64,000 nt of DNA from the IMG/VR virus record IMGVR_UViG_3300011008_000186; one strand, given 5' to 3'. This DNA comes from a virus. Under the pieces are notes generated by a model, which did no database searches, was not told the origin of the DNA, and saw only the letters and a list, made by a program, of their open reading frames with translations. Below are positions 25,069 through 26,055 of the stretch, in pieces. How positions within the stretch are numbered: position 1 is the stretch's first letter; every line of letters begins with the position of its first letter. The position numbers were made by a program, and so were the translations under genes.

Positions 25069-26055
25069 TTATTTCGATTCTTCCAAAATGTTTATTCCGA
25101 TTTTTTCTTTGACTTTTAGCGCAATTTCATTGATCGATTTACGTCCAAGATTCCTAATATTTTGGAGTTGTTCAAGATGAGATTTTCCCGGACGCGAATC
25201 CAAATAGCACAATAGATCGTCAATTGTATGTATCCCTTTCCGGATAAGACAGTTGCGGGATCTTACTGACAGTTCAAGTTCATCGATGGACTCTAAATAT
25301 AAATTTATTTCGTTGACGTCCACATCTTTCGAATTAATTAATTGAGTTTTTCTTTTAATATATTCTTCATACTCTTTTTCAAAAAGCTCAATCTCTTTCT
25401 TTCGCTGACATCCATTATAGCCATATAATATCAATGCGCTACGAGAACTATGACGCATTTTTCGAACAGCTTTGGCAATTATCTGCCGTATTCGCTCTCT
25501 AGTAACATGAAACTTTTTTGCAATTTCATCATACGTCTCATTATTCTGATAGTAGCAAATAATACAATCCCTTTCTCTCTGTGAAAGCATCTGCAGCGCA
25601 TTTGCTAAACCTTGTTCCTGATCGTTAGTAAGCATAGAGTTGCCATTCAAATAATCGCTTCCGTTAAAAATAACATCGAGCAGGTTATAAGGATAAGGAG
25701 CAATAAAACCATCCGGTATTTCAATAGTTTTATTCTTATTCCTTGGAACTTTCTGAGAATAAAGATACTGTTCATATGAATTTCTACGGGCTAAATTGTA
25801 AAAATTAGCAAGTAACATCTTTATATCATGTTCTTCTAATTCGGTCAGGTTCGTTCTTCCTAAAATATAATCTGTCGGAACCATAAAGAAATCGGCCATC
25901 GCCATCAAAGTATTAACAGTCGGAGCTGCGTACATGCCGATGTAATTTTTTAACTGAGTTTCCTTGATTCCTATTTTTCTAGCGAGATCTCTTTGCGAAA
26001 TCTGAGCCAAATCCATTAGTTCTTTTAATTTACTTGAATCCCATTTTTTATTCAT
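25069..26055 (-). CDS. chimeric transcription factor: XRE-HTH + sigma-70 region 4 + RNAP alpha C-terminal-domain-like module
   Basis: 328 aa. Three modules: the N-terminus [21 protein letters not shown] (XRE HTH); the middle [45 protein letters not shown] (sigma region 4.2 pattern); and the C-terminus [23 protein letters not shown]...[13 protein letters not shown], which is nearly the E. coli alpha-CTD pattern [22 protein letters not shown]...NLGKKSLTEI. Confidence 0.7.
   Translation of the reverse strand: [328 protein letters not shown]

Follow-up and report, generated by a model that had tools for sequence, protein, structure and literature searches.

A phage protein family with a flap-tip-like helix, sigma region 4 and an alpha-CTD-like domain: candidate readers of upstream promoter DNA

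The subject of this study is a gene on the minus strand of a 64,000-nucleotide stretch of viral DNA (IMG/VR record IMGVR_UViG_3300011008_000186; the whole stretch is hereafter called the window). It encodes a protein of 328 amino acids (aa) in which an XRE-type helix-turn-helix (HTH), region 4 of the sigma-70 family and a domain resembling the C-terminal domain (alpha-CTD) found in the alpha subunit of RNA polymerase (RNAP) are joined. Our analyses indicate that this protein belongs to a very large family that is nearly invariant at the positions used by sigma and alpha to contact promoter DNA, and that carries, ahead of region 4, a short helix resembling the flap tip of the RNAP beta subunit. 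Judged from these sequences, the family probably competes with or redirects host RNAP. In the reading that we place first, with a confidence somewhat short of even, the protein would recognise -35-type and A/T-rich upstream DNA independently of RNAP and would thereby occupy or remodel host sigma-A promoters.

Domain architecture of the 328-aa protein

The gene and the elements of its product are listed below, with structural features taken from an AlphaFold2 (AF2) model and its predicted local distance difference test (pLDDT) values, and from Foldseek comparisons scored by template modelling score (TMt).

25069..26055, minus strand: coding sequence of the 328-aa XRE / flap-tip-like helix / sigma region 4 / alpha-CTD protein (ATG start, from the list of open reading frames, ORFs)
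26062..26069, minus strand: strong Shine-Dalgarno sequence AAGGAGAA, 7 nt upstream of the ATG (read directly)
25864..26028, minus strand: XRE-type HTH, aa 10-64 (Pfam HTH_3; Foldseek match to ImmR 7t8i, TMt 0.85; AF2 helices in aa 8-64)
25756..25833, minus strand: long connecting helix of lower confidence, aa 75-100 (AF2 helix 75-100, pLDDT 63-80)
25663..25701, minus strand: short helix like the beta flap-tip helix, with the family-invariant motif, aa 119-131 (alignments, AF2, motif matrix)
25423..25626, minus strand: sigma-70 region 4, aa 144-211, Pfam core 153-202 (Pfam and PDB matches)
25333..25419, minus strand: long helical linker, aa 213-241, variable in length within the family (AF2 helix 213-241; family alignments)
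25078..25317, minus strand: alpha-CTD-like double helix-hairpin-helix, (HhH)2, domain, aa 247-326, Pfam core 252-317 (Pfam; Foldseek matches to 1z3e_B, 0.84, and 8y5t_A2, 0.87)

The stop codon of the preceding gene (26058-26060) is 2 nt from the ATG of the three-domain gene, and a protein identical to the 328-aa product (P0001) is present on 5 metagenomic contigs. In Pfam searches, HTH_3 matched aa 10-64 (E 1.2e-9, 38.4 bits, cut-off 23), Sigma70_r4 matched aa 153-202 (E 3.2e-16, 59 bits, cut-off 24.1) and RNA_pol_A_CTD matched aa 252-317 (E 8.7e-17, 61.1 bits, cut-off 23.8), so that the three modules proposed for this single ORF in the initial annotation all lie above the curated thresholds. 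The region 4 and alpha-CTD assignments were likewise upheld by phmmer against the PDB, in which SigA/RpoD region 4 chains and the RpoA CTD were matched at 1e-9 to 1e-8, and by domain-level Foldseek comparisons (TMt 0.84-0.87 for alpha-CTD, 0.85 for the XRE domains of ImmR and P22 c2, 0.71 for SigA region 4). The AF2 model, built from 42 homologs, is confident but multi-domain (mean pLDDT 86.7, predicted TM-score 0.54), and the helical linker at aa 213-241 may form a coiled coil or a dimerisation element. With Foldseek, the whole architecture had no match in the PDB or BFVD; single domains only were matched. The peptides quoted in the initial annotation occur exactly in the translation, and their likeness to Escherichia coli sequences holds against the real K-12 rpoD and rpoA; what had been missed was the fourth element, the flap-tip-like helix, and the membership of a very large family.

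Conservation of the DNA-contact residues

Region 4 contacts the -35 element and the beta flap, and alpha-CTD binds UP elements and activators. The -35 contacts of sigma-70 are R584, E585, R586, R588 and Q589, and the UP-element determinant of alpha consists of R265, N268, C269, G296, K298 and S299. When residue equivalences were mapped onto the verified K-12 RpoD and RpoA, the window protein was found to retain all five of these sigma-70 residues together with the K593/R596/K597/R599 patch, H600 and R603, as well as all six alpha residues together with D258 and E261. Conservation was then counted over 73 family members with a mean identity of about 35%. The sigma -35-contact positions are kept in nearly every member (R584 in 63/73, E585 in 71/73, R586 in 73/73, R588 in 72/73 and Q589 in 73/73), as are those of the alpha '265 determinant' (R265 in 73/73, N268 in 71/73, C269 in 69/73, G296 in 73/73, K298, as K or R, in 67/73, and S299 in 67/73). 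The equivalents of sigma-70 K593, R596, K597, R599, H600 and R603 are likewise conserved across the family. Contact positions kept in 63 to 73 of the 73 members therefore indicate selection on the DNA-reading faces of both domains, and since the region 4.2 helix is of the primary-sigma type, TTGACA-like targets are predicted. Of the mechanisms entertained in the initial annotation, these near-invariant residues favour competition for DNA with host sigma and alpha, whereas the reading of box motifs is not borne out (see below).

A flap-tip-like helix ahead of region 4

In RNAP, sigma region 4 physiologically docks on the beta flap-tip helix (PMC6755090). A motif, YPYNLLxxIFGE, is found upstream of region 4 in both long and short forms of the family and is present in 70/73 members; among the 42 three-domain proteins, in which it lies between XRE and region 4, P122, N124 and L125 are invariant. 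Its consensus, N-L-L-D/E-D/E-I/V-F-G-E, is similar to the flap-tip helix (LLRAIFGE), which was verified in E. coli K-12 (EEK-L901-LRAIFGEK), in Bacillus subtilis and Staphylococcus aureus (ERLLHAIFGEK) and in Clostridioides difficile (ERLLRAIFGEK). As the short forms start at the motif (M-x5-8-YPYNLLxxIFGE), it must be part of the region 4 module and not of the XRE domain.

A position-specific scoring matrix (PSSM) was built from the 70 family motifs and scanned across all 1,327 positions of E. coli beta. With the helix columns, which were picked after the resemblance had been noticed, the flap tip ranks 1st of 1,327 (15.2 bits against 8.8 for the runner-up, z 4.7), and with all 16 columns the flap-tip register ranks second; the whole comparison is post hoc. 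In a background set of 188,375 positions, consisting of six-frame ORF segments of the window and the fetched loci, only 3 positions outside the family reach 15.2 bits, or about 1.6e-5 per position. The resemblance rests on this PSSM test and not on a database match, because phmmer of the linker segment against the PDB gave no meaningful match. In the AF2 model, the helix at 123-129 has a pLDDT of 92 with low-confidence loops on either side, and in a model of the core without XRE, computed from the short-form alignment, the motif helix is still ordered (pLDDT about 85), which is consistent with its docking on the core.

Family size, forms and genomic settings

An exhaustive profile search among 1.84 billion cluster representatives retrieved 1,796 clusters (50% identity) at E<=1e-30, and the best 150 of these were nearly all single-stretch full-length matches. 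In a large protein collection, 479 matches were found at E<=1e-5, among them dozens of full-length three-domain proteins (310-380 aa, 33-39% identity); a shorter form of 200-250 aa (about 220) carries region 4 and alpha-CTD without XRE. The family can thus be defined by the order YPYNLL motif, Sigma70_r4 and RNA_pol_A_CTD, with or without an N-terminal HTH_3, a definition that fits the window protein. No Pfam, NCBIfam, PHROG or PADLOC model covers this architecture, and no prior description of the family was found in a full-text literature search, in line with the initial annotation, which was aware of no characterisation of this architecture. Cluster names of homologs were uninformative, and PADLOC gave nothing for the 328-aa protein beyond generic domain matches. 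Among GenBank phages, megablast of 12 kb from the window found no close relative and tblastn of the protein yielded single-domain pieces only; PLSDB plasmids yielded host-type RpoD pieces only, and a single-protein query of GTDB genomes gave just one XRE-level match, in a metagenome-assembled genome of Clostridia.

Loci of homologs were fetched with +/-10 kb, and the absence of a gene or cassette below refers to those spans. The three-domain genes lie among small early genes a few kb from the integrase (the window and loci L001/2 and L014). In temperate siphophages of 40-60 kb, the short forms occupy the late part of the early region, downstream of RecT, SSB or DnaB genes and 4-5 kb ahead of the terminase; the pre-terminase intergenic region of one locus, L003, held no informative -35/UP target. 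Another locus, L006, carries two tandem three-domain paralogs of 347 and 377 aa (8954-11134) on a 199-kb contig, with neighbours (sortase, GH26, MatE, GGDEF, HipA) unlike those of a classical prophage. Repeats of a canonical sigma-A promoter of 66 nt, CAATTGACA-N17-TGGTATAAT (at 8856, 11355, 17083 and 19149), flank the paralogs, with a conserved palindrome, AAATTCTACGGATTT, upstream. In BFVD, many uncultured phages and Mycobacterium phage Mithril encode stand-alone alpha-CTD-only or region 4-only proteins of 95-150 aa, and the reuse of RNAP reading modules by phages seems broader than the three-domain family.

Gene setting and the box cassette

The window represents a large temperate tailed phage of gut type, and the phage origin proposed earlier is confirmed by its integrase, CI-like repressor, tape measure, tail and lysis genes and a giant DNA polymerase-primase. 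The tyrosine integrase and the CI-like XRE repressor (34147-34485), to which the three-domain protein is unrelated, are encoded on the plus strand, and a long early/replication region with the 1,384-aa polymerase-primase and a helicase occupies the minus strand. The lysogeny switch (33985-34120) has tandem minus-strand promoters of sigma-A type (TTGACT-17-TAAAAT and TTGACA-18-TATATT), one plus-strand promoter of sigma-A type for the CI-like gene and two exact palindromic operators, TTAAG-N5-CTTAA, found nowhere else in the window. A homolog of a neighbouring gene was found in a Lachnospiraceae genome, which together with strong Shine-Dalgarno sites points to a Clostridia host.

The three-domain gene is part of a block with a terminator and a box at its head, and it lies about 8 kb downstream of the switch with its sigma-A-type promoters. 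The exact octamer of this box, TTCGCGAA, occurs in 7 copies in the window against 1.5 expected. A position weight matrix (PWM) identified 12 sites, all intergenic, on the coding strand and in the early half, with the long consensus tTTCGCGAAATTTTGGTCTCCTTATATGAA, often directly past a terminator. They are as follows.

27096..27145, minus strand: box cassette, terminator plus TTCGCGAAATTTTGACTCCCTAATACGAG, heading the operon that contains the three-domain gene; presumed -35-less phage promoter
27586..27635, minus strand: second box cassette upstream of the block of the three-domain gene
4627-4676, 20807-20856, 22049-22098, 30567-30616, 30980-31029 and 31409-31458, minus strand: box cassettes (PWM)
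32473-32522, 32814-32863, 33026-33075 and 33348-33397, minus strand: box cassettes (PWM)

The cassette has a -10-like part and no -35, with the box 12-13 bp upstream of the -10-like element. The box was rejected as a sigma-A promoter, as TTGACA is missing at 16-18 bp, and A-11 or T-7 is often missing from the -10-like hexamers. By sequence, the cassette looks like a phage-specific, factor-dependent promoter class and, by position, the three-domain gene is driven by box operons.

L014, from a second phage that encodes a homolog of the three-domain protein, holds 11 copies of the same cassette. Within the fetched 21 kb of L014, the proteins clearly shared with the window are only the three-domain protein and a 135-aa phrog_11237 protein, with one weak match to a polymerase-primase fragment in addition. 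In both, the phrog_11237 gene heads the early operon and the first box follows immediately. Homologs of phrog_11237 led to three more lineages (L015/17, L018/19 and L020/21) that have a backbone of integrase, phrog_11237 gene, small ORFs and three DUF6353 genes, followed in L015-L017 by a DUF5906 polymerase, and that carry 4-9 cassettes each on the coding strand. The three-domain gene is absent from the fully covered interval in all three lineages. Conversely, the cassette is absent from four family-bearing loci (L001, L003, L005 and L006). Because the three-domain gene is absent from three related box-bearing lineages, it is an accessory gene of the window phage lineage and not a core step of its cascade; by class it is a middle gene.

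The phrog_11237 early protein of the window (135 aa; 33375-33782, minus strand) belongs to a family with 946 matches (50-60% identity, about 138 aa) that is always found at the head of the early operon, and phrog_11237 and the box cassette co-occur perfectly. The protein had no match in Pfam, NCBIfam or the PDB, and hhalign against the region 4 core gave nothing. Candidates for the box reader are phrog_11237, the polymerase-like protein described next or a host factor, and phrog_11237 appears to be the best phage-encoded candidate.

A box cassette also precedes the gene (868-3711, minus strand) of a 947-aa putative RNA polymerase that matches phrog_4291, annotated as 'RNA-dependent RNA polymerase'-like, with E=0. 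It has HTHs near both ends (aa 86-115 and 908-945, Sigma70_r4_2/HTH_23-like) and 45% identity to the 'putative RNA polymerase' of Faecalibacterium phage FP_oengus; phrog_4291-like proteins are widespread in actinophages, where they are annotated only as HTH proteins. An identification with YonO was rejected, as tblastn (1e-10) matched FP_oengus and actinophages and no Bacillus/SPbeta record.

Proposed mechanism

In the proposed mechanism, the protein would be a free-standing, sequence-specific DNA-binding regulator built of the parts with which RNAP reads the upstream promoter. Its flap-tip-like helix would fill the region 4 groove in cis, giving a stable -35 reader that does not depend on RNAP; the region 4 domain would read a -35-type hexamer (TTGACA-like), the alpha-CTD-like domain would lie next to it in an A/T-rich minor groove, in the manner of alpha-CTD at UP elements, the N-terminal XRE HTH would anchor the three-domain version to a specific operator, and the long helix between region 4 and alpha-CTD probably dimerises the protein. 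The bound protein would take the DNA needed by sigma-A holoenzyme for sigma-4 and alpha-CTD. Its likely effect would be to occlude or remodel, selectively, those host and early-phage promoters that depend on -35/UP elements, while -35-less box promoters and genes under the phage's own polymerase-like enzyme would be spared. For a protein that would sit at the places taken by sigma-4 and alpha-CTD in the holoenzyme, the simplest outcome is selective occlusion or remodelling.

This mechanism is supported by the box promoters without a TTGACA -35, by the polymerase-like gene carried by the phage, and by engineered region 4 / flap-tip chimeras that are stable in the PDB (3t72, 7kuf, 8cwt) and are matched by the region 4 domain. 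The accessory status of the gene is also easier to reconcile with host takeover or modulation than with an essential cascade step. Several points weigh against it. All functional statements are drawn from sequence, predicted structure and comparative genomics. What these show directly is the architecture, the retention of DNA-contact residues throughout the family, the likeness to the flap tip and the accessory, middle-class status of the gene; the docking in cis, the DNA sites recognised and a repressive outcome are proposals, and sequence alone does not separate repression from activation. The docking of the flap-tip-like helix in the region 4 groove follows from pLDDT alone, and the motif of the window protein, NLLDVIFNG, retains LL..IF and loses the consensus GE. 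Demands of the fold or of partner contacts could account in part for the conservation of the 'DNA-contact' residues. No composite target (operator, -35 and A/T tract) was found in the window, where good TTGACA promoters occur only at the lysogeny switch. Finally, short-form phages without their own polymerase would need late promoters that escape occlusion.

A broader formulation, possible and rather more doubtful, is that the family represents a portable copy of the upstream promoter-recognition head of RNAP (flap-tip mimic, sigma-4 and alpha-CTD), i.e., polymerase mimicry. In T4, ADP-ribosylation of alpha R265 acts on UP elements. One possible version of the mimicry would be a DNA-side competitor that blanks -35/UP-dependent promoters, by analogy a DNA-level counterpart of AsiA and of this modification; another possible version is a domain-swap wedge, in which the flap-tip mimic takes host sigma-4 and the protein's own sigma-4 takes the host flap.

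Alternative explanations

An RNAP-docking adaptor is the alternative that survives best, and we consider it unlikely. In this explanation, a sigma appropriation by one polypeptide, the protein's own region 4 would dock on the beta flap tip of the host, its flap-tip-like helix would capture host sigma-A region 4, or both, forming a wedge between sigma-4 and the flap, and XRE and alpha-CTD would tether the remodelled holoenzyme to DNA chosen by the phage. Both halves of the natural region 4 / flap-tip interface are indeed present within the family, and T4 AsiA, a functional mimic of sigma-R4 on the flap tip, provides a precedent for a phage factor that replaces sigma R4 there (PMC6755090). The box promoters also resemble T4 middle promoters, in which a box at about -30 replaces the -35 (PMC6755090), in that the box stands upstream of a -10-like element with no -35. 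However, pure docking would not require near-invariant region 4.2 base-contact residues, the order of the flap-tip-like helix in the AF2 monomer suggests occupancy in cis, and the presence of cassettes in relatives lacking the gene indicates that this protein is not the factor that makes box promoters work.

It is less probable still that the protein is a conventional activator of particular phage promoters (e.g., those of late genes), bound via XRE and region 4 and recruiting host RNAP by native-like surfaces, with the R603-equivalent directed to host alpha-CTD and the 261-type acidic patch to sigma-A region 4. The R603-equivalent is kept in 64/73 members and acidic residues are conserved at alpha 259 and 261. 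Late activators of Gram-positive phages are often encoded at the distal end of the early region, where the short forms are also found, and in L006 the tandem paralogs follow a canonical sigma-A promoter that has a conserved palindrome upstream. Against this, the gene is dispensable in the window's phage lineage, no conserved target promoter was found, and PHROG matches of the 328-aa protein are limited to generic sigma or XRE families, similarity to RinA, ArpU and LtrC in PHROGs or Pfam amounting to generic region 4 matches.

A protein-level decoy, in which free region 4 and alpha-CTD surfaces would titrate host activators, anti-sigma-like factors or defence sensors, appears very improbable. 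The activator-contact patch of region 4 (K593, K597 and R599 equivalents) is conserved and the gene is accessory, but the DNA-contact residues of both domains and the XRE HTH would not be needed for such a role, and association in PADLOC is limited to generic domain matches.

That the three-domain protein reads the TTCGCGAA box cassette, as the initial annotation had suggested, is equally hard to sustain. The box is enriched (7 exact copies, 12 PWM sites), its palindromic core would suit an HTH dimer, boxes and gene occur together in the window and L014, and Pfam detected no other sigma/HTH regulator among the approximately 55 minus-strand early-region ORFs. Nevertheless, three lineages have the cassette without the gene and four family-bearing loci lack the cassette, which tracks phrog_11237 instead; the window and L014 proteins differ in their XRE recognition helices (one is ITPKSLSEYL) although their boxes are near-identical, and boxes and terminators lie upstream of the gene for the protein itself. 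This suggestion is thus largely refuted by comparative genomics.

Neither a sigma factor nor an RNAP subunit

A genuine alternative sigma factor, the label that annotation pipelines would give, is already refuted by domain content and has practically no chance of being correct: the TIGR02937 sigma70-ECF superfamily cut-off is passed (48.6 against 42.9) and one homolog was named 'RNA polymerase sigma factor' by JGI, but the match covers only model positions 103-163, no Sigma70_r2 or Sigma70_r3 match was found by Pfam at E<=1 in the 328-aa protein, whose N-terminal 100 aa consist of the XRE HTH and a helix, and the short forms begin directly at the motif preceding region 4. The JGI label is therefore wrong, because region 2 is absent.

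By the same tests, the protein has region 4 of the sigma-70 family without region 2, and the RpoA C-terminal (HhH)2 domain with its 265 determinant without the N-terminal dimerisation/assembly domain (alpha-NTD). The alpha-NTD was not detected, as rpoA models align only at positions ~218-295 with scores of 40-53, far under their cut-offs of 228-523. The protein qualifies as an XRE/Cro-CI HTH_3 protein and not as a CI/LexA-type repressor, since Pfam found no S24 peptidase or CI dimerisation domain; its gene lies in an operon in the lytic direction, 8 kb from the switch, and not in the lysogeny module. No PHROG, Pfam or PDB match to AsiA or MotA was found for the 328-aa protein, UPF0122 (YlxM) remained under its Pfam cut-off (E 0.028), and MzaA was matched by the region 4 tail only (51 bits against a cut-off of 800). 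An annotation error is thus corrected: members of this family clear the generic 'sigma-70 family' threshold without being sigma factors.

Comparison with known systems

The region 4 of the window protein has the same fold as, and a very similar sequence to, that of primary sigma factors (sigma-70/SigA), with the -35 contacts and the C-terminal RH.SRS tail kept. Unlike a primary sigma, it is preceded by the flap-tip-like helix and followed by alpha-CTD, and regions 1-3 are missing; thus, there can be no sigma-2 core binding and no -10 melting. Similarly, the alpha-CTD-like domain shares with RNAP alpha the (HhH)2 fold, the 265 determinant and the acidic 258-261 patch, but it is tethered to region 4 by a helix of variable length and has no alpha-NTD, and the phage protein is therefore not assembled into RNAP. 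With the CI/Cro/ImmR-type XRE regulators it has the N-terminal five-helix HTH_3 in common, while region 4 and alpha-CTD replace the C-terminal oligomerisation/peptidase domain.

The engineered sigma-4 / flap-tip chimeras (PDB 3T72, 7KUF and 8CWT), in which region 4 and the flap-tip helix form an autonomous module in one chain, offer a structural likeness. The phage version is natural, its helix is N-terminal to region 4, only the LLxxIFGE core is common with beta, and the docking is predicted. In function, T4 AsiA/MotA and the T4 ADP-ribosylation of alpha R265 come nearest. AsiA and MotA are phage factors on the same sigma-R4 / flap-tip / -35 axis and are non-homologous to the family; AsiA binds and remodels host sigma-R4, whereas the protein studied here carries a true sigma-R4 copy with intact DNA-reading residues. 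The T4 strategies act on the polymerase, and this family would act as a copy of the polymerase reading head. As for the box cassette, the SPBRE of phage SPbeta is a multi-copy conserved intergenic element of the early region, and MrpR is a repressor with a recombinase fold (PMC10516654). Both SPBRE and the cassette are repeated early intergenic elements of large temperate Firmicute phages; the cassette tracks phrog_11237.

Other features of the window

Just downstream of the three-domain gene lie genes for a protein with a dATP/dGTP diphosphohydrolase N-terminal domain (22735-23220, minus strand) and a WDGH-domain protein (23963-24583, minus strand), which may have nucleotide-pool or anti-defence functions. 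Further features observed in the window are listed below.

18599-19513, 20867-21640 and 22086-22757, minus strand: three DUF6353 / phrog_2152 paralogs, a triplet conserved across related phage loci (L008, L015-L020)
28637-28710, minus strand: tRNA-Gln (anticodon TTG) in the early region
28750-29470, minus strand: NSGN-type pentapeptide repeat protein (Pentapeptide_2) joined to or before DUF7666; gene calls disagree between ORF scans and JGI (300 aa)
56147-63988, minus strand: unusually long tape-measure-like protein (2,613 aa) of the structural module, nearly at the window edge

Significance

Taken singly, the domains described here are textbook modules; their combination, the flap-tip-like helix and the size of the family are undescribed in the resources searched, and the mechanism has a substantial chance of being new. 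Known ways in which phages subvert transcription in the host rely on binding or modifying RNAP, and the reuse of RNAP's promoter-reading modules, apparently with a mimic of the beta flap tip, by a family of at least 1,796 clusters would be a different strategy; if true, either version of the mimicry would add a so far undescribed way of taking over host transcription. The family would also be the source of a natural, soluble sigma-4 module for use in structural and synthetic biology, and it offers an entry point to the transcription programmes of abundant gut Clostridia phages.

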